Source: an uncultured Planctomycetales bacterium (GTDB taxonomy: Bacteria > Omnitrophota > Gorgyraeia > Gygaellales > Profunditerraquicolaceae). Taken from it: 45,712 bases of DNA. How positions within the stretch are numbered: the stretch's first letter is position 1; the number at the start of each line of letters is the position of its first letter. The notes under the pieces were generated by a model. That model made no database searches. It had not been told where the DNA came from and was given only the letters and a program-made list of their open reading frames with translations. Below are positions 15,240 through 45,712 of the stretch, piece after piece. Position numbers and translations under genes: made by a program. The stretch covers positions 76,374 to 122,085 of the forward strand of contig CAZAPM010000001.1 in the NCBI GenBank assembly GCA_964487475.1. Reading direction: 5' to 3'.

Positions 15240-16513
15240 AGAAGGTGAAATTCATCACCCTCGGGTGCAAGGTCAACCAGTATGAGACCCAGGAGATGCG
15301 CGAGCAGCTGGCAGCGTGCGGGTACTCCGAGGTCGCCGGCAGGGAGAAGGCGGACCTGTACGTGATCAACACCTGCACCGTGACCCACCGGGCCGATGCC
15401 GATTCCCTTTACGCGGTGGGCAGGGCCAGAAGGGAGAATCCCCGCGGCCGGCTGATCGTCACCGGATGCCTTGCGGGCAAGGACGCTTCCCGGATCGCCC
15501 TGAAGGACCCGCTGGCGCAGATCATCCCCAATTCCGGAAAATCCGGCCTGGCGTCTCTGATCATGGGGTGTGACGTCACTTCCGTGCGGGGTATCTCGTA
15601 TTTCCAGGGCCGGACCAGGGCATTCCTGAAGATCCAGGACGGGTGCGATAATTTCTGTTCCTACTGCAAGGTGCCTTTGGTCCGGGGCAGGTCGGTAAGC
15701 AAGCCGGAGGAACAGGTCCTGGAGGAAGCGCGCCGTCTGGCGGCAGGAGGTGCAAGGGAACTGGTGCTGACCGGTATATGCCTGGGGGATTACGGTAAGG
15801 ATCTCGTTCCCGCGACGAGCCTGGCGCAGGTGTTGCGCCGGGTTTCCCGGATCAGGGGTATCGCGCGCATCAGGTTAAGTTCGATCGAGATGCGGGATGT
15901 GACCGATGAGCTTCTCGGGGTGATGGCGCATTCGCGCCGCATCTGCCCGCACCTGCATATCCCTCTGCAAAGCGGGGATGACGGGATCCTTGCCGCCATG
16001 AACCGCAAGTATACCATAACAGATTACGAAGCGCTGCTGGAACGGGTGAGAAAGGGCCTGCCCCATGTCGCGGTCACCACCGACGTGCTGGTGGGGTTTC
16101 CCGGAGAGACGGAAGTCCAGTTTACGCATACCCTCGACCTGTTGCGCCGGGCAGGGTTCGCGCGCGTTCATGTGTTCCCGTATTCCAGCCGTCCCGGGAC
16201 TGCGGCTGCAAAGCGCACCCGGGACCTTGTTCCGGAGGAGGTGATCCGTCACCGGATGTCCCGTTGCCGTACCGTGGCAGCCATCGGCGAAGCCCGCTTC
16301 AGGGAGAGCCTTCTGGGATCTTCCCAGGAGGTGCTGGTGGAGCGCGCAGTACCCGGAAAACCCGGGGTATGGGAGGGCTATACCGGCAATTATGTGCGGG
16401 TTGAGATCCGTGCAAAGAGGGATCTCTCGAACGCCGTAATTATTTGTAAAATGAACCAGCTAGATACTCCTAATCAGGAAAAAACCATTGACGGAAGGCC
16501 GGAAAAACTCTAA
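15236..16513 (+). CDS. mtaB: tRNA N6-threonylcarbamoyladenosine methylthiotransferase MtaB
   Basis: TLGCKVNQYE, INTCTVT, VTGC, LKIQDGCDNFCSYC, RIRLSSIE, HLHIPLQSG, VGFPGET, TRAM-like tail GYTGNYVRV; near rsmE. Confidence 0.92.
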   Translation: MKKVKFITLGCKVNQYETQEMREQLAACGYSEVAGREKADLYVINTCTVTHRADADSLYAVGRARRENPRGRLIVTGCLAGKDASRIALKDPLAQIIPNSGKSGLASLIMGCDVTSVRGISYFQGRTRAFLKIQDGCDNFCSYCKVPLVRGRSVSKPEEQVLEEARRLAAGGARELVLTGICLGDYGKDLVPATSLAQVLRRVSRIRGIARIRLSSIEMRDVTDELLGVMAHSRRICPHLHIPLQSGDDGILAAMNRKYTITDYEALLERVRKGLPHVAVTTDVLVGFPGETEVQFTHTLDLLRRAGFARVHVFPYSSRPGTAAAKRTRDLVPEEVIRHRMSRCRTVAAIGEARFRESLLGSSQEVLVERAVPGKPGVWEGYTGNYVRVEIRAKRDLSNAVIICKMNQLDTPNQEKTIDGRPEKL

Positions 16514-16516
16514 TAT
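16488..16516 (+). promoter_or_regulatory. sigma70 promoter of Hxs module 1 (overlaps the end of mtaB)
   Basis: TTGACG (16488-16493), 17 nt spacer, TAATAT (16511-16516). Confidence 0.6.
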
Positions 16517-16576
16517 ATAGAAGAGGTGTACATAGCCGGCGGTACCGCTCGGAAGGTGTCGTAAAAAGGAGGGGAT

Positions 16577-17035
16577 ATGCGTAAGGTGTTGTTTCTGATC
16601 TGTTGCGGCATTATCGGTTTTTCGTCGCTCACCTCGGCCGTGTGGGCGCAGAACAACGAGGAGATGACGGTGACAACGTACTATCCTTCCCCATTCGGCT
16701 CCTACAACCGGATGGATGTTTCCCGCTCGATCGCTGTCGGGCCTATGCCTGCTGCCAGGACGTATGTGGAAAGTCTTAACAGCGGCGGCGTGACCGAAGA
16801 AGGCACGGTCTATACCAGTGGTTCGAACTCCTGTTTCGTGTTCCAGGCCAGGCAAAGCCCCAGGCGGTTCGGGTGGTATAGCGGCAACGGCGAGGTCGCG
16901 TGGCTGTGGACGGATTCACCCGTCGCACCTGCGGGCCCGAACGGGAACGTGTTCGGGGTAGAGCGTAACGGCAGGGTATACTGGTTGGCTACTCCGTCGG
17001 GACATCCGCATCTGGCAACTATCGGGATCGAGTAA
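16577..17035 (+). CDS. Secreted protein with N-terminal TVTTYYPSP motif (copy 1)
   Basis: AAGGAGG RBS; Sec signal ending AVWA; mature N-terminus QNNEEMTVTTYYPSPFGSYN nearly identical to that of 34043-34666. Confidence 0.8.
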   Translation: MRKVLFLICCGIIGFSSLTSAVWAQNNEEMTVTTYYPSPFGSYNRMDVSRSIAVGPMPAARTYVESLNSGGVTEEGTVYTSGSNSCFVFQARQSPRRFGWYSGNGEVAWLWTDSPVAPAGPNGNVFGVERNGRVYWLATPSGHPHLATIGIE

Positions 17036-17059: not shown

Positions 17060-17479
17060 ATGAAGAGTCCGGTGATCAGGGTCGATACGTTTGTGGACGG
17101 TAGTGAGTATGCGGTGCTGGAGATACATCAGGGAGTATACGACCTTAAAACGATCCAGGCCGCGGGGTATGTGTTCCTGGATAAAGCGTATATATTGCTG
17201 GATATGAACGAGCGGCAGCGGATCGAGGTGTACCTTTTCCCCAAGGATAAGGCCATGGATGCCAAGACCTGCGCGTTGGAATTCAGTAACGAGCTGGTGA
17301 ATTACGCGCATTATTTTACCCGGGTGGAGAGCAACGCCGAGGTTTCCAAGACGATTATGCAACGGGTATTGTTTTCGGTGAACCCGAAAGCGGCGAGCGA
17401 AGCCGAGGAGCAGGAGATACAGGAGCTGCTCAAAGAACTGGAAAGCGAATCCGCGCCCCGGAAAAAGAAGAAGCGATAA
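17060..17479 (+). CDS. hxsD: His-Xaa-Ser system protein HxsD (module 1)
   Basis: VYDLKTIQAAGYVFLDKAYILLD...EFSNELVNY...IMQRVLF pattern; upstream of HxsB. Confidence 0.8.
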   Translation: MKSPVIRVDTFVDGSEYAVLEIHQGVYDLKTIQAAGYVFLDKAYILLDMNERQRIEVYLFPKDKAMDAKTCALEFSNELVNYAHYFTRVESNAEVSKTIMQRVLFSVNPKAASEAEEQEIQELLKELESESAPRKKKKR

Positions 17480-17487: not shown

Positions 17488-17706
17488 ATGCCTTTGCCCG
17501 TATACGTGAAAGGTAATAAGTTCAGCCTGGTGCTGCATGGGAAGTGTTACCCGGAAGCGGTATGCGCCCGTTTTGCCGCAGAGCAGGGCGCGTATATGGA
17601 AAAGCCCATGCAAAAGAAAGGCTCTTACACTATTGTGCCGCTGAAGGTTTCCTCATTGCAGGATGCGCTGGAACGCGCCAATTACCTGCTTTTCCTTACC
17701 CGATGA
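17488..17706 (+). CDS. Short HxsD-like protein (module 1)
   Basis: 72 aa; LHGKCYP...ANYLL parallels LHATCYP...LNFLL of 35062-35274; same position between hxsD and hxsB. Confidence 0.6.
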   Translation: MPLPVYVKGNKFSLVLHGKCYPEAVCARFAAEQGAYMEKPMQKKGSYTIVPLKVSSLQDALERANYLLFLTR

Positions 17707-19124
17707 CCATGAAAAGCACTGCGCAGTGGGCTATCCTGCCGTATGCGGTCAAAAGGATCGGGGAGTCGTATCTTCTGGGGACCCAATGGGGGGATTGGGT
17801 CGGCCTTACCCGCGGCGAGTTCTCGCAAGTGCACTCCTGGTCCCTGCAGGAGGGGTCAGCGCTTTTCCATAAGCTCAAGGCGCGCCGGCTGGTGATAGAC
17901 CAGGCTTCGCTCCCCGAGTTCATCTCCAGTGCCAGGAACATGCAGGCCAACCTTTTTTTCGACACCGGTCTGCATATCGCGGTGGTGACGCATAAATGTA
18001 ATTTCTCCTGCGTGTACTGCCAGGCCCATAACGCGGATGCGCGGGATATGTCGTTGCCCGTGGCGGTGAAGGTGGTGGAGTATCTTTTCTCCGTGCGCAA
18101 TCCCATGGTCAGGCTGGAACTGCAGGGGGGGGAGCCGCTCTGCAACTGGAAGACCGTGCGCTTCCTGATCGAATTCGCGCGCGAACGCAATACGCTCGAG
18201 CGCAAGAACCTCATGATCAGCCTTGTCTCCAATCTCACGCTGTTGGACAAGGCCAAGGCTCGGTTCCTGGCCGGGCACCATGTCGACGTGTGCGTTTCTT
18301 TCGACGGGCCGCAGCAGGTGCATGACAGCAACCGGCCTTTCCTGACGGGAAAGGGGACGTACTCGGCGCTGCTGAAGAAACTTGATATGCTGCGCAAGGT
18401 GTACGCGGACGCCGGCATGTACCCTGCCATAAGCGCGCTGCCGACGGTGACCAGGGCTTCGTTACCGTATCCCCGGGAGATAGTCGACGAGTTCGTCCAA
18501 AGGGGTTTTTCTACGGTCCACTTAAGGCCGATCAACAACCTGGGAAAAGCGCGCCGGGTATGGTCCGAGGTCGGGTATTCCGCGGAAGAGTATATCGCTT
18601 TCTGGAAGGAGGCTTTGGAGCATATCCTTGCCCTCAATGCCCGGGGGATACGGGTCACGGAGACGATGACCGGATACCTTCTGAGAAGGATACTGCGTAA
18701 GCAGGACCATTTTTTCGTCGACCTTACCAGCCCGTGCGGAGCGGCGAGGAGCCAGATGGTGTATGCGCCGAACGGGGATGTGTATACGTGCGACGAGGCC
18801 CGTATGCTCGGCGAGGATACCTTTAAATTGGGCAACGTGCGCCGCCAGACGTACCAGGAGGTGTTGAAGTCTCCCGCCGTCCATTATACCACCCAGGCTT
18901 CGCTCATGAGCCTGTGGGATTACAATTCGGCATTGTGCGCATGGAGCGGTACGTGCCCGGTGCTTAATTTCCAGGAGCAGGGCAGTCCGGTGGTGAAGAT
19001 CACACAGACGTTCCGGCATAAGGTGCTTTCGGCCCAGCTGGAATTCCTTTTCGATAAATTGCTCCACGAACCCCAGGCGGAGTCGATTTTTCAGGAATGG
19101 GTGGCTTCAGAAAGGAGGCAGTAA
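17703..19124 (+). CDS. hxsB: His-Xaa-Ser system radical SAM maturase HxsB (module 1)
   Basis: N-terminal extension, LHIAVVTHKCNFSCVYCQA, LELQGGEPL, DGPQQVHDSNR, VDLTSPCGA...NGDVYTCDEARM; clear paralog of 35271-36728. Confidence 0.88.
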   Translation: MTMKSTAQWAILPYAVKRIGESYLLGTQWGDWVGLTRGEFSQVHSWSLQEGSALFHKLKARRLVIDQASLPEFISSARNMQANLFFDTGLHIAVVTHKCNFSCVYCQAHNADARDMSLPVAVKVVEYLFSVRNPMVRLELQGGEPLCNWKTVRFLIEFARERNTLERKNLMISLVSNLTLLDKAKARFLAGHHVDVCVSFDGPQQVHDSNRPFLTGKGTYSALLKKLDMLRKVYADAGMYPAISALPTVTRASLPYPREIVDEFVQRGFSTVHLRPINNLGKARRVWSEVGYSAEEYIAFWKEALEHILALNARGIRVTETMTGYLLRRILRKQDHFFVDLTSPCGAARSQMVYAPNGDVYTCDEARMLGEDTFKLGNVRRQTYQEVLKSPAVHYTTQASLMSLWDYNSALCAWSGTCPVLNFQEQGSPVVKITQTFRHKVLSAQLEFLFDKLLHEPQAESIFQEWVASERRQ

Positions 19125-19127: not shown

Positions 19128-19562
19128 ATGGCAGTCAAAGCGGCAAGGCGAAAGAAACAGAAGATAGTGATGAAGAAGAACCTCAGGGATTTCATGAAAG
19201 ACGAATCCGGGTACATGACCAAGGAGAACCTGCTTAAGGTCGCGGTGGGGACCATGACCGGGTTCGGGGTGTTGATGGCTTCATCGCAGGCGCAGGCACA
19301 GCACCAACAGGGTCCCCCTCAAGGGCCAAGCCTTCTCGATCTGTACAACTCGATGACCCCGGCAGAGCGGGCAGCGTTGGCCAGTGCGATGGGAGTAGGT
19401 ACTCAGTCCGATGATCCCGGTCCCGGCCAGGTGGCGGGGATCCCGGGAGGATGGAACCAGCACATCAACGCGGAATCGCTGGAATGGAGGCCGACGGGGG
19501 TGGGCACGACACTCGAGATATTCCCCAGCCATACCCATCACAGCGTGCACGTGGCATATTGA
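19128..19562 (+). CDS. Putative RiPP precursor 1 (HxsA-like, degenerate His-x-x core)
   Basis: AAGGAGG RBS; directly after hxsB; leader KKNLRDFMKDESGYMTKENLLK aligns with precursor 2; C-terminus HTH-HSV-HVA-Y. Confidence 0.7.
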   Translation: MAVKAARRKKQKIVMKKNLRDFMKDESGYMTKENLLKVAVGTMTGFGVLMASSQAQAQHQQGPPQGPSLLDLYNSMTPAERAALASAMGVGTQSDDPGPGQVAGIPGGWNQHINAESLEWRPTGVGTTLEIFPSHTHHSVHVAY

Positions 19563-19594: not shown

Positions 19595-20377
19595 ATGAGG
19601 CGGGTGTTCGCAGTGGTCGCGGTGGCGGTGTTCTCTTTATGTTCCTTCGGGTTGGGCAAAGGTTTCGCTGCAGAGGAGTCTGGAGCATGCGAGGATTGCA
19701 AGCAGTTCCGGGGGATAGTACCTTCGGAGGAGCAGATTGCTTCCCGTCTTTCCTCAGCGGACCGGATGGTCGCATTCTCCGCCTACCGTCATTCGGATAC
19801 CACGATGTGCAAGAAAGCGCTCGATACCGAGGCATGTTACGATTCCGTGCAGCTTTTTGCCCTGATCGAGACCCTGGCCAAAGGGCGGTGCGATAATCTC
19901 CCCGTGCGTTACCGTGCGGATTACAAGCCGGTGTGCGAGGCGATTAAAAACAACTCTTGCGGGATCGTCGATGCAGGAGTGTTCCAGGATCTTTGCCAGG
20001 GTTTGGCGGCACGCAATCGGGACAGGATCGCTGCCGCTTTGCGCAACCCTCTTTATCCTGAGATCCCCAAGAACCCGGATGATATGGCCGACATGATCCT
20101 TAACCTGTATTCGGCTTATCGGGACGGGAAGAAGGCCTGCCCTCCGGGAAAGTCCCTCAATATAGTTATCAACGCTTCCTGCGATATGCTCTTCGGCTCG
20201 GCTGCGTTGACCAAACAGATCCCCGGGCTGGCAAAGGACATGCGGGTTGCGCTGCTGGCCAGGAACACGGAGAAGCCCGGCCTTTGTTCCGGTATCATTG
20301 ATCCGCACGTGAGGGCGGTGTGCCAGACAGGGAATTACGAGACCTTCGAACAGCTTTTGGATCAGCTCTGGTATTGA
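19595..20377 (+). CDS. Secreted Cys-rich protein (module 1)
   Basis: GGAGG RBS, Sec signal peptide, 12 Cys in the mature part including C-x11-C units. Confidence 0.75.
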   Translation: MRRVFAVVAVAVFSLCSFGLGKGFAAEESGACEDCKQFRGIVPSEEQIASRLSSADRMVAFSAYRHSDTTMCKKALDTEACYDSVQLFALIETLAKGRCDNLPVRYRADYKPVCEAIKNNSCGIVDAGVFQDLCQGLAARNRDRIAAALRNPLYPEIPKNPDDMADMILNLYSAYRDGKKACPPGKSLNIVINASCDMLFGSAALTKQIPGLAKDMRVALLARNTEKPGLCSGIIDPHVRAVCQTGNYETFEQLLDQLWY

Positions 20378-20410: not shown

Positions 20411-21622
20411 ATGACCAACAAAGTCGCGATCTATTTCACCCATAAGGAGAGCCTGGGGCATACCTCACGGGTGCGTGCGATTGTGACCGCGCTTATACGT
20501 ATGTACGGCCGCAAGGTGCGGGTGAGGGTGTTCCATGCGGGTAAGCCGCAGCGCTATATAAAGTTCCCCGATAACGTCGCCTGGGTGGACCTTCCTTCCC
20601 CGTACTTCAGCCGGGCATCATTTTATCAGCGCCGCGGCGGCAGCTGCGGGGAACATATGTATTATGCCCGGCAGCGCCAGGAAGTGATGCTGGCGTACCT
20701 GCGCAAGGACCCTCCGGACGTATTCGTCACCGAATTCTTCCCCTTTGGAAGGCAGGAATGCAGGTTCGAGCTTCTTCCGGTTATTTCGTATTTGAAGAAG
20801 GCAGGGGTAAGGATCTGCGCCTCGATTGGCTACCCGTTTATCGTACGGGACAGCCTGGCGGTGATGAAGGAGTATAACCGGTTATACGACCGTTTCCTCA
20901 TCCATACCCCGGAGGGCCTCGAAGAGCCGTTTTTAGCCGCATCCATCAGCCATCCTCCCTTAAGGGACGCGTACCGGGAAGTGCTTGCCTTGCTGTATCC
21001 TAAGACGACGTATACCGGATATATATTGCCGGTGTCCCCCGCTGCCGGAGAAAAAAAGCCGAAATATCCCCCATCAGGAAAAGGGAAAAAAATGGTGCTT
21101 GTCAGCAGGGGAGGGGGGGTGATCTATCCTAAGATAATCACCCACGCGATCCTGGCAGCCGCGCGTATCGGGGATGAAGCGGATTTTTCGGTGCTCAGCG
21201 GCCCGTCCACCAGTAAGAGCGAACTTGCGGTGTTCACCCGTCTTATCCGCAGCCTGAAGAAGCGACGCTGCACATTCTCTTTATACAGGGATGATTTCCC
21301 TGGGCAGCTTGCCGGCGCGGATGTTTCCGTGAGCATGGCCGGATACAATACCGCGGTGCAGCTATTGCGTTGGGGGACGCCTTCGGTGCTGGTCCCTTCA
21401 GGAGTGGATCCGGAGGTTTCCCAGGGGTACTGCAGCGAACAGTTGAGCCGTGCCGAATTGCTGCGCACGCGCCTTCCCTCCCGTGTGCTGGAATATAATC
21501 ATCTGACCGCGGAGGGTATGGAGTGTGCCATACGCGAGATGCTGAAAAAAAAGAGAGTGGCGCCCGCGCCCGCGGCTTGGTTCGAAGGCGCGCAGCGTAC
21601 CGCGGGGATACTCGCCCAATGA
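20411..21622 (+). CDS. GT-B glycosyltransferase (COG4671/GT28 C-terminal-like)
   Basis: SLGHTSR, VTEFFPFGR..RFEL, VLVSRGGG, ADVSVSMAGYNT, EQLSRA. Confidence 0.8.
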   Translation: MTNKVAIYFTHKESLGHTSRVRAIVTALIRMYGRKVRVRVFHAGKPQRYIKFPDNVAWVDLPSPYFSRASFYQRRGGSCGEHMYYARQRQEVMLAYLRKDPPDVFVTEFFPFGRQECRFELLPVISYLKKAGVRICASIGYPFIVRDSLAVMKEYNRLYDRFLIHTPEGLEEPFLAASISHPPLRDAYREVLALLYPKTTYTGYILPVSPAAGEKKPKYPPSGKGKKMVLVSRGGGVIYPKIITHAILAAARIGDEADFSVLSGPSTSKSELAVFTRLIRSLKKRRCTFSLYRDDFPGQLAGADVSVSMAGYNTAVQLLRWGTPSVLVPSGVDPEVSQGYCSEQLSRAELLRTRLPSRVLEYNHLTAEGMECAIREMLKKKRVAPAPAAWFEGAQRTAGILAQ

Positions 21623-22734
21623 AGGTAAGGATAGAGAACAATCGGTCTGACAAAGTGTTGCTTAAGAAGTGCCTGCAGGAGCTGGAATCCGCCGTAGTGC
21701 AGGCGCAGGGCCTCAACGACCTTGACCGGTACCGCCAGGGTTTCGAAGCGCAGTTTGCATCCTATGTGGGAGCCGCGCATGCCCGCGCGGTGAATTCCGG
21801 CACCGATGCGTTGCATCTTGCTTTGCTGGCGCTGGGAGTCGGGGCGGGACATGAGGTCCTCGTTCCCGATGTCACGTACGTATCCACGGCGCTGGCGGTC
21901 CGCTTCGCGGGCGCAACCCCGGTATACGTGGATGTGCGCGGCGCCGATCTCACCCTCGATACCAGGCTCCTGGAGCGCGCCCTGACGCCCCGCACCAAGG
22001 CCGTCATGGCGGTGCATATGTTCGGCAATCCCTGCGCCATGACCGAGCTATCTAAATTCGCGAAGGCGCACCGTCTCCTGGTCGTCGAGGATTGCTGCCA
22101 GGCATTGGGCAGCAGGCTGGGGCCAAAGTCCGTCGGCAGTTTTTCCGATGCTGCGGCGTTCAGTTTTTCGTATTACAAGCCCCTGTCTTCGCTTTCCGGA
22201 AACGGAGGGATGGTGGTCTGCCGGCAGGCTCGTACCGCGGAGAGGATCGATGCCCTGCTGAATTTCTGGAAGCTCGATCCCCTGATCGCTGGTGCGGGGA
22301 GGAAATTTCATAAGATCGCCCTGCCTGATCTGGCGACGGTCAAAGTGAAGTTTTCCATACTGGAGGCGATCATCGCCAGCCGTGAGAAGTCCAGCCGCCG
22401 TTATGAGAAGGGCCTGCGGGGGCTGCGTGCCGTGAGCGTTCCCTCCCGCAGTCGGGAGGCGGTTACGGTGAAGGAGAATTTCCTCGTGTTCTGCGCTCAG
22501 AGGGACCGTCTGCGCAACGCCCTGGCCCGGCAGGGCATCGATACGGACCTGCCGTATGAACCGGTGCACCGTGCGGCATGCTGTGCCGATCCTTTGGCAT
22601 CTGACCGGTCGTTCCCCGAGGCGATGCGTTATTTCCGGGAGGGTTTACATCTTCCATTGTACTCTTTCATGCGGGACGACGAATGTGACAGCGTGATCCG
22701 TTCGGTGGTCTCGTTCGCACAAGGCATCCGATAG
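21619..22734 (+). CDS. DegT/DnrJ/EryC1/StrS family PLP aminotransferase
   Basis: VNSGTDALHLAL, TKAVMAVHMFG, VVEDCCQALG, FSFSYYKPL (PLP Lys), LHLPLY. Confidence 0.9.
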   Translation: MKVRIENNRSDKVLLKKCLQELESAVVQAQGLNDLDRYRQGFEAQFASYVGAAHARAVNSGTDALHLALLALGVGAGHEVLVPDVTYVSTALAVRFAGATPVYVDVRGADLTLDTRLLERALTPRTKAVMAVHMFGNPCAMTELSKFAKAHRLLVVEDCCQALGSRLGPKSVGSFSDAAAFSFSYYKPLSSLSGNGGMVVCRQARTAERIDALLNFWKLDPLIAGAGRKFHKIALPDLATVKVKFSILEAIIASREKSSRRYEKGLRGLRAVSVPSRSREAVTVKENFLVFCAQRDRLRNALARQGIDTDLPYEPVHRAACCADPLASDRSFPEAMRYFREGLHLPLYSFMRDDECDSVIRSVVSFAQGIR

Positions 22735-33799: not shown

Positions 33800-33810
33800 C
33801 CCATTAGGGA

Positions 33811-33947: not shown

Positions 33948-33979
33948 AGACTAAGGTAAATGCGCACGCTGAAAAAAAA

Positions 33980-37372: not shown

Positions 37373-37417
37373 GAGTCGGGAAGAGCGTGTGTGGCGCATA
37401 ACAGGGAGGAAGAGGTC

Positions 37418-37790: not shown

Positions 37791-38939
37791 ATGGATTTGT
37801 CCCTGGGTGTCCGCATAAGTGGCCGGTGTAATCTTGCTTGTAGTTATTGCTATGCGGCGCGCGGGAGGAGGGATTTGCACTTTTCCCGTTTTGTCAAAGG
37901 GGTTGAAGCGTTCCGTCGATTCTCGCTTCGGTACGGACAAGGGAAAAGGCGTTTTTTCTTTCTGGGTGGCGAACCGTTGATGGCCTTCCCGTTGTTGGAA
38001 CGCAGTGTCCGGCATCTGCGTCAAGTGTTCCCCGCGGAAACAAGCGATATCTTTGTCACCACGAACGGTACTCTCCTCACTCCGCATGTGGTCGACCGCC
38101 TTCGTGAACTTGGGGTGAAGATCACCTTGAGCATGGATGGTGGGGAGGCCGCCCATGATTCGCATAGGGTGTTTGCCTCCGGGCGCGTTCGGGGCTCATT
38201 CGACCTTGTGCTGAGGCGTATCCTCCAACTTGATCCGTCCCAGCGCGCTTCGATCCGGATTCACTCCGTTCTTACCGCAACACATCTCGGCGGTCTTTTT
38301 CAATTCTGGCAGAGGATGCGGCAGCTCGGGTTCATGCGTTTTAACTTCATTCCCGTGCTCGATCGCGGGCATTGGTGTAAAGTAGCGATAGGCCGGGCGC
38401 AGAGGGCTTTCTCGAACGCTGCGCGCAGGTATATCGCGCTCTTTGAGGCAGGGGAGGAGCATAAGGCGTTTGTGCTCGACCCGCTGGATGACCTGCTGCA
38501 CGGGACGTTCGAGAGGCAGGGGGAGGTAGTGGTCAGGCAGGGGAAGATGTGTTCCTGCAATGCCGTGTGGCTGGACGTCTCCGGCGATTTTTATGCCTGT
38601 GACCCCGTGGACGCGTTGCCTGCGCGGCAACGGGAACTATACCGCATCGGCGACGTCTCTTCGGGTATTTCCGCCGCCCGACGCGCGCGCATACTTAAGG
38701 ACGCCGGAAATGCCGTAGTGCCGTATATCTCGGAGGTGCTCCCCAAGGGGGTGCCGTGTATGCTCTGCGCGTTCCCTTTTTACTTCTTGTCCCGAAACGA
38801 CAAGGGAAAACGGCGTGTCCAAACTTCGGAAGACCTCGAGGCATATTGCGGGATCATCCGCGTCTACACGGATTTCTTGCGGACGGTACGGTCAGCGTTG
38901 CAGGGGAACCGGATCTTTTCCCGGATCTACCATGTGTGA
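37791..38939 (+). CDS. Radical SAM protein (anSME/SPASM-like, reduced Cys set)
   Basis: RCNLACSYC, FLGGEPL, TTNGT, LSMDGG..AHD..R, CSC...GDFYAC...IGDV...CMLC. Confidence 0.85.
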   Translation: MDLSLGVRISGRCNLACSYCYAARGRRDLHFSRFVKGVEAFRRFSLRYGQGKRRFFFLGGEPLMAFPLLERSVRHLRQVFPAETSDIFVTTNGTLLTPHVVDRLRELGVKITLSMDGGEAAHDSHRVFASGRVRGSFDLVLRRILQLDPSQRASIRIHSVLTATHLGGLFQFWQRMRQLGFMRFNFIPVLDRGHWCKVAIGRAQRAFSNAARRYIALFEAGEEHKAFVLDPLDDLLHGTFERQGEVVVRQGKMCSCNAVWLDVSGDFYACDPVDALPARQRELYRIGDVSSGISAARRARILKDAGNAVVPYISEVLPKGVPCMLCAFPFYFLSRNDKGKRRVQTSEDLEAYCGIIRVYTDFLRTVRSALQGNRIFSRIYHV

Positions 38940-40329
38940 CGGTACCGTCTATCCCGAAAGGTTGTATAAGGCACTTACCGAAAAGATCGCCGCGACCGAT
39001 CATTCGGGGTATACTCTGCAATATCCTCCCCTTTTTCTTTGGGGGCGCACGTTCTCCGCGGGAGATATCCTCGCATCGATTAAGCGCCTGCTTGTGCCGG
39101 CAAAGCGGCACTTCGGATTGTACGTGCATATCCCGTTTTGCAGGGAAAAGTGCTTGTTCTGCAGGTATTATTCTCTGGCGATCGATAAAACTTCTGAGCT
39201 CGACCGGTATCTCGATGCCCTGGAGAAGGAGATGCGGACCTATGGCAGTGCCGCCAGGGGGGTCAGTTGCCGTACCCTGTATATCGGGGGAGGGACACCG
39301 GCGATATTCTCCCTTGCGCAGTTGCGTCGTCTTTTTGGAGTGGTCCGGGATGCGTTTGACCTGCGGTTGTGCGAGCAGATCGCGTTCGAGGGGAACGCGG
39401 ATTTCCTCGATACCAAAAAACTCCGGTTCCTGGCGCAGGCCGGCGTCGACCGTTTGACCCTTGGTGTGCAGAGCCTCGATCCGCGGGTGATCAGGATCAA
39501 TCGCAGATACCAGTCCGCACGGTCTTTCCATAGATGTTTCCGGGCCGCCCGGGAGGCGGGAATCAGGCATATCAACGTCGATCTCATGGCCGGGCTTCCG
39601 GGTCAAAACGACGCCAGTCTGGCCCGTACCGTTGAGGCAGTGCTTTCGCTCCGTCCCGATATGATCCACGTACATCCTTTTTACCCGACGTCTTTGACCG
39701 GATTCATGAAGGAGGGAGGCAGGATAACGTGGGAACAGGTCCAGGCACGGGAGCGTATGATCGAGATGTGCCGTAAGAGAGTGCAGGCAAGGGGGTATTT
39801 CCCTTTGCACTTCGATGCGCTTGGGATCACCCCCGGCGCATACAATAAACAGCTTTCGGATTCTATCGAGCATCTTTCTGCGTTCTTGGGACTGGGCGCG
39901 GGAGCCGTGTCGCACCTCACGGGAAATTATCGTTTTGCCAACGAGATCGACGTGATGGCCTACGGGGAGAAAGTGGCGCGTACCGGCACCGGGATCGCCG
40001 TGGCGTCGAAGCTTACCCTTAAGGATGAGATGGTGTATTATGTGACCTCCTGCTTGCGTTATGGCCCGGTCGATGACGGTGAGTTCACGCGATTGTTCGG
40101 GCGCAGCGTGCAGCGCGTTTTCCCGAAAGAGATACGCTCCCTGGCGCGTCTGGGGAAGATCTCCTGGACGGGTACACGCATTGAACCTCGTTTTTCCTCC
40201 CTGGGAGAGTATTTGGTATATTCTAAAACCTTCTATGGCCGCCGAGTGTTCTCTCGCTGGAAGCCACCCCAACGCGCGTTCCTTCGCGCGCCATTGCCGG
40301 AAAGGCAGATACGGTCGATGCTGCTATGA
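38932..40329 (+). CDS. HemN-like radical SAM (copy 1)
   Basis: QYPP, LYVHIPFCREKCLFC, LYIGGGTP, RLTLGVQSLD, INVDLMAGLPGQ, FLGLGAGAVSH. Confidence 0.88.
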   Translation: MCDGTVYPERLYKALTEKIAATDHSGYTLQYPPLFLWGRTFSAGDILASIKRLLVPAKRHFGLYVHIPFCREKCLFCRYYSLAIDKTSELDRYLDALEKEMRTYGSAARGVSCRTLYIGGGTPAIFSLAQLRRLFGVVRDAFDLRLCEQIAFEGNADFLDTKKLRFLAQAGVDRLTLGVQSLDPRVIRINRRYQSARSFHRCFRAAREAGIRHINVDLMAGLPGQNDASLARTVEAVLSLRPDMIHVHPFYPTSLTGFMKEGGRITWEQVQARERMIEMCRKRVQARGYFPLHFDALGITPGAYNKQLSDSIEHLSAFLGLGAGAVSHLTGNYRFANEIDVMAYGEKVARTGTGIAVASKLTLKDEMVYYVTSCLRYGPVDDGEFTRLFGRSVQRVFPKEIRSLARLGKISWTGTRIEPRFSSLGEYLVYSKTFYGRRVFSRWKPPQRAFLRAPLPERQIRSMLL

Positions 40330-41714
40330 GACCTTCTGAGTTCTTGAGGGATGCCGCTCTGGTGCGGCGCATCTGCGAAAAGGTCTTTTCTTCGCCTGTT
40401 TCTTTCGCGGGTACCGGATACGAGTATCCGCCTATGTTCTTGTGGGGCGAGATGGAGGAGCGTTCACTGCGCACGGGGTGGAAGGCTTTTGCCGCGTCGT
40501 CCCGATGGTATGACCCCGGTATCTACGTGCATATCCCTTTTTGCGCATCCAAATGCGGGTTTTGTGAATTCCTTTCTTTTGTGCCTTCGGCAGGTGAGGT
40601 CGACGAGTATCTTTTGCTTCTGGAGAAAGAGGCGGCGAGTCATTCTCGGTATCTCGGACGGATCCCCTGGAGGACGGTGTACATAGGAGGAGGGACGCCT
40701 TCTTTCCTTAGCGTGCGGCAGCTGCGGACGCTTTTTGACCGGGTTCTTCGAGGGAACTTCGATCTCGGTAGTTGCGTGCAGATCGCGTTCGAGGCGCATC
40801 CCGCGAGCCTTACCCGAGAGAAAGCGGCCGTCTTGAAGAAGTGCGGGGTGAATAGGTTGACTATCGGTGTACAAAGCCTGGACGCGAAGGTGCTTGCCAG
40901 GTGCGGTCGAAGGCAGGGTGAGGAGGATTTCGAACGCGCGATCAGGAACGCGAGGGATTGCGGAATCCCGCATATCAATGCCGATGTGATGGCCGGTATC
41001 CCTGGGCAGAGTGTGCGAAGTTTCTCCCGTACCATGCGCCGGGTGTGCGAGGCGAGGCCGTCGCTCGTGCACGTCAATCCTTTCCATCCGAGCGTTCCGA
41101 CCCGTTTTCCCTGTGGAAGCAAGGGGCCGGAGCCCCGTTTTCTCCAAAGACGGGACCGTATGGTTTCCTTGGCGCAGGAGATGCTTTGTGCACACGGCCT
41201 TACCAGCAGGGAGTATGCCGTGCCTTTTTCTTCTTCCCCTGCCCGTAACGTTCAGCTTACCGATCAGGTGCAGCATAACAGCGCGTATTTGGGGATAGGG
41301 CTGAACGCCTGTTCGCATATACCGTTTCACTCCCGTTACCTTAACGAAGTAACGATGCGGGAATATGCCGCCGCGGTCATGAAAGGGCGCATACCGGTAC
41401 GGTGCGGGCGGCGCATATCGAAGCAGGATGAGATGATATTCTATGTGTCGGCGAACCTCCGGTATGCAGGTGTGGCGCTCCGGGAGTTCCGCCGTCTTTT
41501 CGGTAAAGTGCCGCAAGAAGTGTTCGGGGAGGAGCTGGCGTTCCTTGCTGCGCGCGGAAAGGTTTCGTTGCAAGGGGAGTATATACTTCCGGGATCGATG
41601 AATACCGAGACTCGCGAACTCGGATCCCTGCCCGATTATTACTTTTATTCGAAGATCTTCTTCGGTTCGCGGGTGTTGCGCGAATGTGCGAGGGCGCTGG
41701 ATGTGGTGGCATAG
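40326..41714 (+). CDS. HemN-like radical SAM (copy 2)
   Basis: EYPP, IYVHIPFCASKCGFC, VYIGGGTP, RLTIGVQSLD, INADVMAGIPGQ, YLGIGLNACSH. Confidence 0.88.
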   Translation: MRPSEFLRDAALVRRICEKVFSSPVSFAGTGYEYPPMFLWGEMEERSLRTGWKAFAASSRWYDPGIYVHIPFCASKCGFCEFLSFVPSAGEVDEYLLLLEKEAASHSRYLGRIPWRTVYIGGGTPSFLSVRQLRTLFDRVLRGNFDLGSCVQIAFEAHPASLTREKAAVLKKCGVNRLTIGVQSLDAKVLARCGRRQGEEDFERAIRNARDCGIPHINADVMAGIPGQSVRSFSRTMRRVCEARPSLVHVNPFHPSVPTRFPCGSKGPEPRFLQRRDRMVSLAQEMLCAHGLTSREYAVPFSSSPARNVQLTDQVQHNSAYLGIGLNACSHIPFHSRYLNEVTMREYAAAVMKGRIPVRCGRRISKQDEMIFYVSANLRYAGVALREFRRLFGKVPQEVFGEELAFLAARGKVSLQGEYILPGSMNTETRELGSLPDYYFYSKIFFGSRVLRECARALDVVA

Positions 41715-42618
41715 CCGGGCCAGGCAGTGGCGGGCATTCTTTTCTTCCCTGTACGGTGATCTTAAGATCGAAGCCGGTGCGTTCCTCGGCACTGCGGTGG
41801 ATCTGTGCGCCCGCCAGGATATTCTCGGGGTGCAGGAGTTCGAATTCTCTTTGCGTCTGCGCGGCGGTGTTCCGCAACGGGCAGTGCGTGTGGTCAATTA
41901 CGATAACCAATCGTTCAAGTATCCCGATCTGTATGCTGCGCGTATCGAGATGTTGCGGGATATTCTGACGCGCGCCAAGGCATCCCCGCGGGCCTTGCGG
42001 TTTATGGACAACGCTTCCGCGTTTTCGGTGAGGGTGCCCATGTATTTAGGGATAGAGCTGAACCCTCAGGGAAAAGCTCTCTGTAAGATATATTGCAATG
42101 TCTATGGCATCGCCTCGGATGCGCTGCGGCGTCAGGTGGTGCGTCGGATGCTTGAGGGGGTCGCGGCCGTGCCCAGGATGCGCGCGTTCCCGTTCTCCCT
42201 TTTTGCCGTGGATTGTCTGCCCGGTTCCGGAGCGCTGCCGTGCAAGATATATTACTTGCATTCATTCAGTGAGAAGAGGCCGTTGCGTAGGGGAGGCTTC
42301 TCTGCGCAGGAGATCGAGGGGTTCCAGAAGCTTGAGCCGTTCGCGGGGCTGCCGTATTACGTGATCGCCGAAAGAGTGAAGGGTGCCCGCGTGTATTCCC
42401 GTAAGCTCGAAGTGGGGATCCGTCCCGATATTGATCAGAGAGTATTCCTGGCAGGTCTTCTGGCGGAAAGAGGGGTGCGGGATGCCGGCGGAACGGCCGA
42501 GCGTATCTTGCGTACCCGTCAGAGGTGCCGGACGCAGCTGCGCGTGGTGATCGTCGAAGGCGGCGTGCGTACGGTATACGTGCGCGTGATACGGGAGGGA
42601 AGGAAGGCGGATGAATAA
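41701..42618 (+). CDS. Hypothetical protein, candidate ABBA-fold (DMATS/LynF-like) prenyltransferase
   Basis: Repeated beta-hairpin signatures YLGIEL...CKIYC and FAVDC...CKIYY, plus EFSL and RKLEV strands; overlaps both neighbours. Start is 41686 or 41701. Confidence 0.45.
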   Translation: MWWHSRARQWRAFFSSLYGDLKIEAGAFLGTAVDLCARQDILGVQEFEFSLRLRGGVPQRAVRVVNYDNQSFKYPDLYAARIEMLRDILTRAKASPRALRFMDNASAFSVRVPMYLGIELNPQGKALCKIYCNVYGIASDALRRQVVRRMLEGVAAVPRMRAFPFSLFAVDCLPGSGALPCKIYYLHSFSEKRPLRRGGFSAQEIEGFQKLEPFAGLPYYVIAERVKGARVYSRKLEVGIRPDIDQRVFLAGLLAERGVRDAGGTAERILRTRQRCRTQLRVVIVEGGVRTVYVRVIREGRKADE

Positions 42619-43663
42619 GGAGATATACAAACTCGATCTGGCGCTGACCACGGCATGCAACCATGAGTGCCGGTATTGTTTCGTGGATAAGACCGGCGAG
42701 GTGATGCCGTTATCCGTGGCGAAGCGGGCGATCGATCTCTTGCTGGCCAGCCCCGGACGACGTAAGCTCCTGATCCTGTATGGGGGGGAGCCGCTGCTTG
42801 AGTTCGCTCTTTTGACGGGGGTGGTGCGCTATGCGCGGGCACAAGGAAGCCGGAGAGACAAGGAGCTGATCATCTCTCTCGGGACCAACGGTACCTTGTG
42901 CGAGGAGCGCCATCTCGAATTTTTCCTGCGTTACAGGGTGAAAGTCGCGTTGAGCCTCGACGGGCCCGGGCTGGTGCATGATGTCAACCGGCGGATGAAA
43001 GGCGCCCGCAGCTCTTTTGCGCGTATCTCGCGCAAGTTTTCCTTGCTGCATAAGTATCTTCCTCCGCAGGACCTGTGTGTGCTCTGCGGTGTGGATCCGC
43101 GTTTCGCCGGCCGCCTTGCCGGTATCTATGAGTTCATTGTTTCGCAGGGATTCACCGCGGTCAACTTCGAGCCGCTGGTGGGCGTGCCGTGGGATCGCGC
43201 AAGCCTGCGGGCATTTGCCCGGGGCCTTTCGGAAGTAGCGGGTTGGCAACTCACCCAGATATCCTCCGGGAAGTTCTATTTCCTTAACTCGGTAAGCCGC
43301 CTGCTTGCGGGGGACAGGTTCAATTATCTTTGTCCCTGGAAACGTTGCCTTGAAGTATACCCTTCGGGAGTTATGAGCTTTTCTCCGTTTCTGATCAATT
43401 CTCCGGAGAGAAAGCGTTATATCATCGGCAACGTCCTTGACGGGATGCCCGCGCGTTACGCCGGGTGCGTATATTCACCGAGAAGGAGGGCCTGCCAGGA
43501 GTGTTGGCCCGGGTTCGTGCCCGCAGCATACAATCCCGCGCCCGCGTATTTACTGCGTAACCGCGTTTCATCCAGGATGGCGACCCTGGTGCGCGCGTGT
43601 GCCGCTGAACACGGAGCGTTCAGGCGGTATGTCCGCGAGGCCAGGAAGAGGGTATTCGAATAA
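42611..43663 (+). CDS. Radical SAM protein (SPASM-like)
   Basis: ACNHECRYC, YGGEPLL, GTNGT, LSLDGP..VHD.NR, CPW...IIGNV...C...CQEC. Confidence 0.85.
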   Translation: MNKEIYKLDLALTTACNHECRYCFVDKTGEVMPLSVAKRAIDLLLASPGRRKLLILYGGEPLLEFALLTGVVRYARAQGSRRDKELIISLGTNGTLCEERHLEFFLRYRVKVALSLDGPGLVHDVNRRMKGARSSFARISRKFSLLHKYLPPQDLCVLCGVDPRFAGRLAGIYEFIVSQGFTAVNFEPLVGVPWDRASLRAFARGLSEVAGWQLTQISSGKFYFLNSVSRLLAGDRFNYLCPWKRCLEVYPSGVMSFSPFLINSPERKRYIIGNVLDGMPARYAGCVYSPRRRACQECWPGFVPAAYNPAPAYLLRNRVSSRMATLVRACAAEHGAFRRYVREARKRVFE

Positions 43664-44715
43664 TGGGGCCGCGACAGCTGAATCTTACGTTGCACATCAA
43701 CGAGCGCTGCAATCTTTCGTGCCGGTATTGTTATATCACCCAGAAGCCGAAGGCCATGTCCCTGGAAGTGGCCAAGAAGGCGGTCGATTGGGCCCTGGAG
43801 CGCGGATATCCCGAGACCATCATCAGTTTCACCACGGCAGAGCCTCTTCTCGACCTGCCTCTGGTGAAGCAGGTCGTTCGTTATGCGAGACGAAGAGGCG
43901 TGCGCAGGTTCGATCTGGCGACAAACGGTACTTTGCTCGATGCGCCGACGCTCAGGTATTGTCAGGATAATAACGTGGTGCTGCAGATAAGCTATGACGG
44001 CAGTACTCCTGCGCATGACCGGCTCCGATGCTCCCGTTCCATCACGAGCGTTTCCCGCCTCGTAGAGAAAAAACTTGAACTGGTTCAACGCTGGTACCGG
44101 CTGCATTTGGAGCTGCGGATCACCTTTACCCCCCGTACCGTGCCTTTTTTGTCGCGGACGGTGCGGTGGCTTGTCGAAAAACAGGTCTCCAGGGATATGC
44201 GCATCAACATGGTCCCCGTGGTGCATCGCACGGTATGGACGGAGAAGGATTTCGCCGTGTTGAGGCGGGAAGTGTTTGCGTGTGCCGATCTTTTTCTCGA
44301 ATATTACCGCAGGGGGAAGAAGCTTAACCTATGCGCGAGCGAGTGTCTGCCCCTGCCGTACCATTTCCTGTCTATTTACCGTAACCGTGATCGTCAGGAG
44401 ATGTTCTGTAACACGGGATATAGCATCCTCTCTGTTGACGCGGAGGGAAGGATATGGCCGTGTTACTGGCTGGGCGCAAGCCGTTTTGCGCGCAAAGATC
44501 GGCTGTGTCTGGGGTCGATATTCGAACCGGTGTTCGATAAGGCCAGGCTCGAGGGATTCGTCCCCATCCGGAGGAACCCGTTCCTGTCCTGCAGGGCTTG
44601 GAACTATCTCGTTAATCGTGATAGCGGCCAAGCGGTCAAAGTGTACCGTCGTTATTTCTCATGTTGGCTTGCGGCGTCAAAATATGTGCATTCGTCATCG
44701 GAGGTCAAGGTATGA
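43663..44715 (+). CDS. Radical SAM protein (twitch-like)
   Basis: RCNLSCRYC, TTAEPLL in place of GGEP, ATNGT, ISYDG...HD..R, FCNTG...EGRIWPC...LGSI. Confidence 0.85.
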   Translation: MGPRQLNLTLHINERCNLSCRYCYITQKPKAMSLEVAKKAVDWALERGYPETIISFTTAEPLLDLPLVKQVVRYARRRGVRRFDLATNGTLLDAPTLRYCQDNNVVLQISYDGSTPAHDRLRCSRSITSVSRLVEKKLELVQRWYRLHLELRITFTPRTVPFLSRTVRWLVEKQVSRDMRINMVPVVHRTVWTEKDFAVLRREVFACADLFLEYYRRGKKLNLCASECLPLPYHFLSIYRNRDRQEMFCNTGYSILSVDAEGRIWPCYWLGASRFARKDRLCLGSIFEPVFDKARLEGFVPIRRNPFLSCRAWNYLVNRDSGQAVKVYRRYFSCWLAASKYVHSSSEVKV

Positions 44716-45712
44716 GCGGCGATCTTCCCGTCGTATATGTGAAGGAGTTCGGTTGTCCGACCATGAAGAGTTTCGCCCGCACGCTCGCAGGAAAACTGAC
44801 CGCACGCGGTTTTCTCGTGCTGCCTACGCAGGACCAGGGGCCTTTGAGTATGGGAGGGGAGGAGTTCCGTCGAGCCTTACGTGCTTCCGTGTGTATCTTC
44901 TATACGTGCGGGATCGTGGATTTCTGTGAACGGCAGATCGGCGCCTATATGAAAGAGGTTGTGGAAAAGAACCCTCTCGCGAGAATTGTCGTCACGGGAT
45001 GCAGTGCGGACCGTTTTGCGGCGATGCCGGGGGTGCTGCTGGCGACTCAGGAGGAGGGAGCGATCCTTCGTGCTTTGCGGCGCTGGTTCCCCGGTCGCCG
45101 TCCGGGTGTTTCCGTGACCCGCAGTACACCGGTCCGGAAGGAGGAGATCTTGGTCAAGAGCGGATGCACGAAGTTCTGTGCATACTGTGAGGAGCCTTTT
45201 CTGCGCCGCGGTTCAGGGACGCTCTGTCGTTATGAACGCGCGGAGTCGATCGTGCGCGCCGTCCTGCGCTCCCAGCGTAAAGGGGCGAGGGAGGTACAGC
45301 TTGTCGGGGTCTGCATCGGGGATTGGCGTGATCCTCTCACGGGGATGCGTTTGGACGGGTTGTTGAAGCGGATACTGCGCGAGACGAACGTACGGATCGT
45401 GGGGCTGGAACTTCATCCGCGGGATTGTACCGCGCAGATCAGGAAGCTGCTTTCGCACGAAAGGGTCGGCAGGAAGATCTCCGTTCCGGTGGAAAGCGGT
45501 TCGACACGCGTACTGCGACGCATGAGGAGGGGGTATACGGCCGTTCAGGCGCGCCGCCTGCTCCAGGAGCTCGTGCGCGAGGTCCCCGGTATCTCTATTT
45601 CGACTGATATCATCGTTGGTTTCCCGGGGGAGACAGAAAAGGATTTTCTCGCTACCTGTGCGTTGGTCACCAAGTTTCCTTTTGAACGAGTGTATGTTAT
45701 GCGGTATAATGA
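44712..45712 (+). CDS. MiaB/MtaB-like methylthiotransferase-family radical SAM (copy 3), truncated by the window end
   Basis: Not in the ORF track because it has no stop in the window. Hand translation from ATG 44712 is open to the end: EFGCPTM, FYTCG, VVTGC, KSGCTKFCAYC, VESGSTRVLRRMRRGY, STDIIVGFPGETEKDF. Confidence 0.85.
   Translation, partial: MSGDLPVVYVKEFGCPTMKSFARTLAGKLTARGFLVLPTQDQGPLSMGGEEFRRALRASVCIFYTCGIVDFCERQIGAYMKEVVEKNPLARIVVTGCSADRFAAMPGVLLATQEEGAILRALRRWFPGRRPGVSVTRSTPVRKEEILVKSGCTKFCAYCEEPFLRRGSGTLCRYERAESIVRAVLRSQRKGAREVQLVGVCIGDWRDPLTGMRLDGLLKRILRETNVRIVGLELHPRDCTAQIRKLLSHERVGRKISVPVESGSTRVLRRMRRGYTAVQARRLLQELVREVPGISISTDIIVGFPGETEKDFLATCALVTKFPFERVYVMRYN

Follow-up and report, generated by a model that had tools for sequence, protein, structure and literature searches.

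Why does an uncultured bacterium with a genome of 1.87 Mb, probably one of the Omnitrophota since its best named relatives are labelled Candidatus Omnitrophota, keep, between mtaB and recA, a run of 37 genes of which 18 encode radical S-adenosylmethionine (SAM) enzymes? Most of the run lies in a stretch of 45,712 nucleotides on contig CAZAPM010000001.1 (G000:C1:76374-122085, where G000 is the genome, 94.6% complete), and this whole stretch is called the window. An earlier note, made from the window sequence, had read the locus as a giant two-module His-Xaa-Ser (Hxs) cluster for a ribosomally made, post-translationally altered peptide (RiPP). We find the island to be a real, intact and extreme member of an undescribed branch of Hxs-type systems, in which a peptidase of the A24 family is a core partner and the C-terminal tail of the precursor peptide is seen to track the set of tailoring enzymes encoded nearby.

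An intact island of two modules

Is the locus real, and how far does it reach? The Hxs island spans window position 16577 to C1:127823, about 35 kb or some 2% of the genome DNA, and ends 5.7 kb beyond the window. Upstream lie a type IV pilus operon and then rsmE-mtaB, downstream recA. All 37 genes have intact frames and mostly overlap or stand a few bases apart, the tight coupling that the earlier note had described. The CxxxCxxC motif is kept in 18/18 radical SAM genes, seven in module 1 and eleven in module 2, against about 1.1 CxxxCxxC open reading frames per 35 kb in the rest of the genome. Fourteen of them start inside the window, at the positions noted before; 13 of these pass Pfam Radical_SAM, and the protein from 44712 matches MiaB/RimO-type models (E=7.5e-57). 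The cluster does run off the window: before it ends short of recA it adds four further radical SAM genes, three of them HxsC-like, together with another prenyltransferase-like gene and another A24 peptidase.

In a search with the Hxs hidden Markov models both HxsB proteins pass TIGR03978, and the reading as an Hxs-type peptide-maturation cluster stands. Pfam bears out the GT28-type glycosyltransferase, DegT aminotransferase, APH kinase, methyltransferase and A24 peptidase, and the predicted fold the candidate prenyltransferase. The GNAT label fares poorly, the window 26610 protein having no match and one of three family members giving E=0.004. The giant size is even larger than supposed but not unique, since a relative (G258) has 22 radical SAM genes in 40 kb and two others (G331, G346) have 17 each. 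The features are as follows (window coordinates, strand, identity; contig coordinates past the window).

16488..16516, +, sigma70-like site (9/12) upstream of module 1, a consensus match only
16577..17035, +, TTYYP secreted-type protein 1; homologues also occur after mtaB without hxs genes
17060..17479, +, HxsD-like 1 (TIGR03976 31.7 bits, cut-off 50, E 1.5e-7)
17488..17706, +, small HxsD-related protein 1, from position and homologues in type-1 loci; itself without NCBIfam match
17703..19124, +, HxsB subtype 1, radical SAM/SPASM (TIGR03978 371.8 bits, cut-off 370; tree)
19128..19562, +, precursor 1: leader of basic character with F-x-x-x-E-x-G, then a hydrophobic stretch; the tail is HVAY (Tyr) and there is a single H-x-S
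19595..20377, +, Cys-rich secreted-type protein 1; no family match, homologues in type-1 loci
20411..21622, +, GT28/MurG-type glycosyltransferase (Pfam PF04101)
21619..22734, +, DegT-family sugar aminotransferase (PF01041 E=2.7e-77)
22751..24448, +, deacetylase-like::radical SAM fusion (DUF2334, Polysacc_deac_1 (weak), Radical_SAM)
24441..25601, +, radical SAM/SPASM (Pfam)
25598..26617, +, radical SAM, rS25 family, type-1 linked (Pfam, neighbourhood counts)
26610..27593, +, possible acyltransferase (GNAT label weak)
27598..28698, +, methylthiotransferase-like radical SAM (UPF0004 and radical SAM domains)
28708..29559, +, APH-type kinase (PF01636)
29556..30305, +, class I SAM methyltransferase (PF13649)
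30302..31459, +, methylthiotransferase-like radical SAM with degenerate N-terminal Cys set
31404..32318, -, A24 (GxGD-type) peptidase, module 1 (PF01478 27.4 bits, cut-off 26.5)
32368..33729, +, radical SAM, rS32 family, the most constant type-1 partner (neighbourhood counts)
33771..34008, +, two sigma70-like sites before module 2 (12/12 at 33771; 11/12 at 33980; consensus)
34043..34666, +, TTYYP secreted-type protein 2
34679..35068, +, HxsD-like 2 (TIGR03976 41.9 bits, cut-off 50, E 1e-10)
35062..35274, +, small HxsD-related protein 2 (NF038315 30.3 bits, cut-off 41)
35271..36728, +, HxsB subtype 2 (TIGR03978 451.3 bits, cut-off 370; tree)
36725..37372, +, Cys-rich secreted-type protein 2
37391..37750, +, precursor 2: leader of the precursor-1 type, 10 H-x-S, GGWC tail (NF038309 45.2/65, NF038313 45.1/55 bits)
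37791..38939, +, radical SAM, PapB-like best match, rS37 type, GGWC-linked
38932..40329, +, HemN-like radical SAM 1 (putatively class C methyltransferase-type)
40326..41714, +, HemN-like radical SAM 2
41686..42618, +, ABBA-fold prenyltransferase, nearest tryptophan dimethylallyltransferases (predicted fold)
42611..43663, +, radical SAM, rS42 family, GGWC-linked
43663..44715, +, radical SAM, PapB-like best match, rS43
44712..45712, +, methylthiotransferase-like radical SAM, cut by the window end
G000:C1 122220-123263 (locus L021), radical SAM past the window
G000:C1 123260-124138 (L021), second prenyltransferase-family gene
G000:C1 124135-126885 (L021), three HxsC/HxsC4-like radical SAM genes (NF038332 152.7 and 143 bits; TIGR03977 157.2; all below cut-off)
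G000:C1 126882-127823 (L021), module-2 A24 peptidase, followed by recA (PF01478 E=0.0046)

The roughly 210 bp between the 12/12 site at 33771 and the 11/12 site downstream could hold a leader or small RNA, with no Rfam match at gathering score; the Rfam scan gave nothing but the tRNA at 11266.

Contigs from three studies (labelled biogas, wastewater and sludge, one of them perhaps the source) cover window 15000-34900 and the last 12 kb at similar depth, two of them bridging the last island gene, for A24, and recA. Over these parts the contigs rule out an assembly artefact. Contigs of other runs differ in window 15000-34900 by five single bases and no indels.

The only DNA repeat within window 16001-45712 is a tract of 469 bp (28147-28615 and 30857-31325), 99.8% identical with one mismatch, in two methylthiotransferase-like genes whose likeness is far lower beyond its bounds, with 62% identity overall. 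It is a sign of recent recombination, by gene conversion or partial duplication. Contig branch points at the tract start in X1 and X3 are consistent with two real copies. One X2 contig passes across the tract from the 5′ part of the second gene to the 3′ end of the first, which a collapsed repeat explains; it may also be a looped-out form.

The leader and its peptidase

The genome yielded two precursors and no more, as anticipated. They have one (precursor 1) and ten (precursor 2) H-x-S triplets and carry the leader common to the rest of the precursor set, with the consensus K-K-x-(L/I)-K-x-F-x-x-x-E-x-G and, behind it, a basic segment, a stretch of hydrophobic residues and in many cases AxA. 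The F-x-x-x-E-x-G motif is present in 81/83 precursors. Gly stands at -1 in 77/83 leaders and Glu at +5 in 27/81, and Lys is the commonest residue at +1, +4 and +9 after the Gly. The HxsA3 model NF038309 gives precursor 1 23.2 bits and precursor 2 45.2 (cut-off 65), the HxsA4 model NF038313 gives precursor 2 45.1 (cut-off 55), and of 37 aligned precursors all match HxsA3 and 18 match HxsA4. A Tat leader was considered and rejected, positions +4/+5 being mostly K and K/E and TatC not being found in the 94.6% complete genome.

Some precursors depart from the common form. Some archaeal ones carry a fused S74 chaperone-like domain (P0100, L096:14713-15312, L130:6850-7422), P0064 is fused to a Hint/intein-like domain, L137:2501-4138 has a long Thr/Ser-rich extension and L175:1507-2382, of 291 residues, a very long H-x-S array. 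Elsewhere in the genome there is a weak Flp_Fap match (G000:C5:60985-61092, 24.5 bits, below cut-off).

What removes the leader? There is one A24 peptidase per module, and a separate canonical A24 on another contig. The catalytic D27 and D103 of these polytopic membrane proteins are invariant in 25/25 aligned sequences. The earlier note had listed A24 among the tailoring extras; neighbourhoods suggest a more central place. Taking the best 80 of 184 genome A24 loci (11 of which repeat contigs already seen), hxs genes lie within 10 kb in 73, comprising 48 with hxsA, B or D and 25 with HxsC-like genes only, and the seven loci without hxs genes are mostly short or cut at a contig end. These loci come from Omnitrophota, Patescibacteria and DPANN archaea, with a few from elsewhere, the archaeal unit being reduced to A24-hxsD-hxsB-precursor. 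Conversely, A24 is present in 33 of 44 HxsB-anchored neighbourhoods, seven of the 11 misses being stretches below 15 kb. Fourteen viral contigs found through HxsB, 12 of them with a visible precursor, served as a control set: A24 accompanies 6/6 loci with the F-x-x-x-E-x-G leader (three distinct types) and 0/6 with a plain signal peptide. By its association, A24 is a core partner of the Hxs module. A24-type Hxs cassettes on viral or proviral contigs are found at L219-L224, and a DUF483-like and TPR gene pair, absent from the window island, occurs in about 10 hxs loci, often near A24 (L072:5675-7152, L032:16344-17321).

When the module-2 A24 is modelled together with precursor 2 (residues 20-75), the predicted complex passes with a score of 0.61, against 0.01 for the best control; the mark was reached by 116/157 solved and 2/215 mismatched pairs, counts that are only rough for custom alignments. 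At least 74% of contacts agree between runs and the partner has a predicted local distance difference test (pLDDT) value of at least 67. The predicted interface joins A24 residues 27 and 97-104 to leader residues 34-53, spanning Gly41-Lys42, and the conserved leader Gly is predicted to sit at the catalytic Asp pair. A24 structures exist, and because they do the complex may pass by likeness to solved structures; a profile search for a solved A24 homologue found none. From this model we infer that A24 cuts precursor 2 after Gly41. A systematic link to type IV pili was rejected, PilB occurring in 5/115 neighbourhoods (the window's own stretch ends short of its pilB).

Precursor tails and tailoring enzymes

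Do the many flanking enzymes act on the precursors? Apart from G000 there were 114 neighbourhoods, and in the 73 of them that show a precursor its tail was compared with gene content. The window prenyltransferase family is present in 7/9 loci with a GGW[CS] tail against 0/64 others, both misses being 5-kb contigs, and the rS37/42/43 radical SAM families in 8/9 against 0/64. DegT/GT28 genes accompany 18/32 Tyr tails against 0/41 others. GGWC loci fall into at least three groups divided by starred (well-supported) branches of the HxsB tree, one of them archaeal. A Tyr-tail precursor alongside a subtype-2 HxsB (G430) has GT28, deacetylase and rS32, and in G446 the complete sugar set accompanies a Tyr tail.

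Later loci agree. All three prenyltransferase-bearing genomes with a newly seen precursor had GGWC(P) tails. Among five loci without a prenyltransferase in view four had other tails and the fifth GGWC; seen further, this last has rS37, rS42 and a weak, 35-bit prenyltransferase. In one further locus no precursor was found. A metagenome scan by the rS42 family gave, among the best 6 of 80 matches, GGWC in both loci with a visible precursor and the prenyltransferase in three; a weaker match (150 bits) adjoins a tail ending FSCY.

Several points count against such a rule. The tails were grouped with the data already in view, and related loci do not count as independent cases. A Tyr tail is insufficient, 14 of the 32 loci having no sugar genes in the stretch examined. 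Two fusion proteins with weak prenyltransferase similarity (27-29 bits), left out of the counts by a length filter, are in non-GGWC loci with a W-ending precursor, and a distant prenyltransferase-like family of three members occurs in three type-1 loci (72% probability, from a search that compared part of the 339 candidate families). Given these outliers, the rule holds for the window enzyme family and not for the whole fold. With that restriction the comparison shows the precursor C-terminal tail tracking the tailoring set. G331 carries its second prenyltransferase in the interval that separates its modules, of which it has two.

The identity of the prenyltransferase comes from its predicted fold. 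Modelled with a 14-sequence alignment the 41686 protein reaches pLDDT 84.5 (39 for a single-sequence fold), and the top Foldseek matches are 5- and 6-dimethylallyltryptophan synthases (E 1.2e-9, template-modelling (TM) score 0.69), followed by PagF/LimF. All the matches listed are prenyltransferase-family structures, as expected of an ABBA barrel. A profile match to 7w8u (E=1e-4) points the same way, and a Glu aligned with one in IptA, which we take to have an indole-binding role, is kept in 11/14 family members. The family occurs in 6/401 genomes of the phylum, all with GGWC-type hxs loci; these six served to build the profile, and the informative part is the 395 genomes without it. We infer from fold and tail that the ABBA enzymes attach a prenyl group to the Trp in the tail of precursor 2.

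For the GGWC-linked radical SAM enzymes the best matches are PapB-type thioether models, and since these are far below cut-off it is guesswork to propose that the terminal Cys forms a cross-link. The methylthiotransferase-like proteins score 190, 150 and 193 bits against TIGR00089 (cut-off 251), with matches that end before the C-terminal part of the profile, and of the two such genes scanned in Pfam only that at 27598 matches UPF0004. Together with the HemN-like pair, these three genes suggest methylation and methylthiolation.

The earlier note had held that its reading would fail if the tailoring genes did not co-occur with hxs genes in other genomes. They do, subtype by subtype. In the 44 HxsB-anchored neighbourhoods, 27 of type 1 and 17 of type 2, GT28 is present in 13/27 against 0/17, DegT in 16/27 against 0/17, rS25 in 12/27 against 0/17 and rS32 in 18/27 against 0/17. 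The idea that rS32 is a permuted HxsC was dropped, the comparison giving only E=0.019.

Origin of the island

Did one cassette duplicate? Both of the cassettes recognized in the earlier note are real, but the precursor and Cys-rich genes stand in opposite order and the two are old subtypes, with no duplication. The HxsB proteins are 37% identical and belong to separate starred clades, of 29 rows each, in a quick maximum-likelihood tree of 81 proteins; with these values, and the 469-bp tract as sole DNA repeat, tandem duplication was rejected. Mean GC content at third codon positions (GC3) is 0.72 in module 1 and 0.65 in module 2, against a genome-wide median of 0.76. Because the HxsB copies lie in different clades and GC3 differs between the modules, the island joined two old Hxs subtypes.

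HxsB-like genes (E<=1e-60) occur in 43/401 genomes of the phylum. Downstream of mtaB in 29 relatives recA follows directly in two, a TTYYP gene in eight, hxsD in four (two of them after TTYYP) and a contig edge in four, the rest having other genes; G339 reads mtaB-TTYYP-TTYYP-recA, with hxs genes absent. By this comparison the island is evidently an insertion between mtaB and recA.

TTYYP, previously counted in the cassette, is not specific to the system and was rejected as a core component: it follows mtaB without hxs genes in view in 4/5 relatives, a third copy lies elsewhere in the genome and none was seen in archaeal loci. The family is wider and of secreted type; its N-terminal motif is fixed, its C-termini vary, and its genes often come directly after mtaB (G000:C1:56983-57417; L215, L216, L217, L218). 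One member (L038:16543-17670) has an S74 tail-fibre chaperone at its C-terminal end, and fold searches gave weak phage-fibre leads only.

Among the neighbours, the type IV pilus operon (window 851-11032) has six N-methyl pilin genes and is followed by a tRNA gene (11266-11338). A PMT_2 (GT-C) membrane glycosyltransferase (13434-15239) lies just upstream of mtaB.

Proposed maturation and function

The functional studies of Hxs genes found were one paper and its preprint, subscription journals being outside the search. HXS, as its main text describes it, is an anti-phage system that Pseudomonadota encode as HxsD-HxsB-HxsC-HxsA (Li et al. 2026, PMC13128918), a role that the earlier note had missed. 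In E. coli HxsA is matured by N-terminal cleavage and gains 8 Da (+C, -4H) on SHRSS; mature HxsA is periplasmic and phage DNA entry is delayed (PMC13128918). HxsC-HxsD is the modelled core of the modification (PMC13128918). With this, and with one triplet in the module-1 precursor, the earlier suggestion that HxsB crosslinks His-x-Ser triplets loses ground.

We lean, by a little, towards two independent modules, each of which would modify its own small precursor, remove the leader with its own A24, decorate the C-terminus with a tail-specific enzyme set and export the product to the cell envelope, where phage DNA entry would be hindered. HxsB/HxsD and the HxsC-like enzymes would modify the His-rich core in the cytoplasm, and the A24 cut after the leader Gly would lay bare the basic-hydrophobic-AxA segment, which could then direct export. 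The ABBA enzymes of module 2 would prenylate the Trp of GGWC, the lipid anchor replacing the peptidoglycan-binding domain of E. coli HxsA, and the tail might be cross-linked or methylated by PapB-like and HemN-like radical SAM enzymes. The GT28, DegT, deacetylase and associated radical SAM enzymes of module 1 may build an unusual amino sugar and attach it at or near the terminal Ser/Tyr. The mature peptide would then hinder phage DNA entry at the envelope as in E. coli HXS.

Defence is put first among functions because of homology, patchy distribution, variable site and presence on viral contigs; by analogy with HXS the assignment is a tentative one. Attachment, signalling or metal binding may be the function instead, especially for module 1 with its single H-x-S. 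Still more tentative is the wider proposal of a widespread branch in Omnitrophota, Patescibacteria and DPANN in which a GxGD peptidase removes the leader, the last two to four precursor residues form an address code selecting a lipid or sugar anchor, and the products are interchangeable anti-phage envelope effectors, this one island holding both anchors.

A number of observations weigh against this scheme. Several type-1 precursors have zero or one H-x-S, and with so few they fit a DNA-binding repeat array poorly. No HxsC over the TIGR03977 cut-off adjoins HxsB: the best match has 157.2 bits against 267.9 and lies 13 kb from hxsB2, and module 1 has none. All island matches to the HxsA and HxsD models are below cut-off, Pfam gives no peptidoglycan-binding domain in the island, and PADLOC returned only generic viperin/radical SAM and methyltransferase matches, nothing specific. 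The APH kinase, the SAM methyltransferase and several radical SAM genes have no orthologue in the 44 neighbourhoods. In two Woesearchaeota loci (L116, L132) four class III pilin-like genes lie directly upstream of an hxs-linked A24.

How do the alternatives fare? The maturation scheme may be right and the product no phage barrier, serving host or surface attachment, signalling or metal binding, which we judge unlikely. The missing peptidoglycan-binding domain and the few H-x-S in type 1 would suit it, as would the hxs lineages, Omnitrophota, Patescibacteria and DPANN being host-dependent, the archaeal precursors fused to an S74 tail-fibre chaperone and the one fused to a Hint domain, and the position downstream of a type IV pilus operon. 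Set against these, PilB is near few hxs loci (5/115), and occurrence in 43/401 genomes, a variable site, viral-contig cassettes and rapid diversification are typical of defence islands. The sole tested Hxs system is moreover anti-phage (PMC13128918).

Less probable again is that only the core of HxsD, HxsB, precursor and A24 acts on peptides, the flanking enzymes being merely co-located and co-regulated and yielding envelope glycans or unattached small molecules, such as a prenyl-tryptophan metabolite or an amino-sugar donor. The closest structures to the prenyltransferase do act on free Trp, enzymes such as DegT, GT28 and deacetylase are typical of sugar pathways, genes of CoA-ligase-like and ketopantoate-reductase-like type turn up in type-1 relatives, and gene sets vary greatly among loci. 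A free-metabolite pathway, however, would not explain why gene content follows the peptide end across HxsB clades, and the G430 Tyr-tail precursor has its sugar genes beside a subtype-2 HxsB.

The size might instead reflect recombinational piling-up of paralogues at a hotspot, with many of the 18 radical SAM genes redundant or decaying. The recent conversion tract, one of whose genes has a degenerate N-terminal Cys set, and the archaeal relatives that manage on A24-HxsD-HxsB-precursor alone speak for this; 37 intact frames, mostly tight coupling, CxxxCxxC in every radical SAM gene and the five single-base differences without indels in other-run contigs (window 15000-34900) make it improbable.

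That the precursors are Flp-like pilins, which A24 turns into filament subunits with radical-SAM and sugar or prenyl modifications, is very improbable: the dedicated A24, the Gly at -1, the hydrophobic stretch and the Glu at +5 recall pilins, but G/XXXXEY occurs in 0/81, +1, +4 and +9 are mostly Lys, 37 members gave no Pfam Flp match and there was no PDB pilin match, and in many precursors the hydrophobic stretch is followed by an AxA site.

Were the two-module scheme to hold, substrates and sites would be assigned to otherwise orphan enzyme families, a prepilin-type protease would be a peptide-leader peptidase, and methylthiotransferase-like and HemN-like radical SAM enzymes would have a part in peptide maturation. 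A tryptophan prenyltransferase for peptide C-termini would be useful for lipidating proteins, and HXS defence would extend from Pseudomonadota into uncultivated small-genome bacteria and archaea.

Comparison with known systems

With maturases of triceptides (three-residue cyclophanes) there is little likeness, HxsB scoring at most 64 bits with the AmcB/GrrM/YhhB/FxsB models against cut-offs of 310-445. The available text of PMC9062424 names HxsB merely as an annotated family, and that of PMC13705601 has no Hxs mention. No paper joining prepilin peptidase with radical SAM, precursor peptide and RiPP was found, subscription journals again lying outside the search.

The window prenyltransferase shares the ABBA barrel (TM 0.69) with bacterial enzymes of dimethylallyltryptophan synthase (DMATS) type (5-DMATS 6zs0, IptA 7w8u, PriB) and with cyanobactin F enzymes (PagF, LimF), at about 16% identity and without a Pfam or NCBIfam match. 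The DMATS substrate is free Trp, whereas that predicted here is the Trp of a GGWC peptide. PalQ, as described in the text available, prenylates a C-terminal Trp and favours GW/GGW ends (PMC13290415). Its fold is unrelated and it requires Trp in the final position (PMC13290415). In the GGWC tails a Cys follows.

Flp/TadV offers a small precursor, a dedicated two-Asp A24 and a conserved Gly before a hydrophobic stretch, the processing site being G/XXXXEY in the part of PMC4322843 concerned. The island differs in having no EY (0/81), charged residues after the Gly, a His-rich core and no tad genes.

Of the NCBIfam models HxsA3 (NF038309), HxsA4 (NF038313), HxsC4 (NF038332) and HxsD-like (NF038315), the first two are matched by the aligned precursors and the last by small genes, the window proteins being below the cut-offs. 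These were compared as model definitions only, and no product, peptidase partner or tail rule was seen attached.

The closest system is HXS, in which, according to the main text, the four genes are present in more than 99.8% of systems and 99.7% are in Pseudomonadota (PMC13128918). Peptidase, prepilin, archaea, Omnitroph- and prenyl- are all absent from that text; the supplements, outside the present scope, may list variant gene structures (PMC13128918). The likeness lies in an HxsB over the TIGR03978 cut-off twice, HxsD-like and HxsC-like genes and a His-x-Ser precursor with an N-terminal signal-like segment, and N-terminal processing belongs to maturation in the known system also, by the same main text (PMC13128918). 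The island differs in its own leader type, a dedicated A24, two HxsD-like genes per module, 18 radical SAM enzymes as opposed to two, and its sugar, prenyl, HemN-like and methylthiotransferase-like enzymes, with two subtypes in tandem; the gene order D-B-C-A is absent. On this comparison it is a variant of HXS outside its four-gene form.

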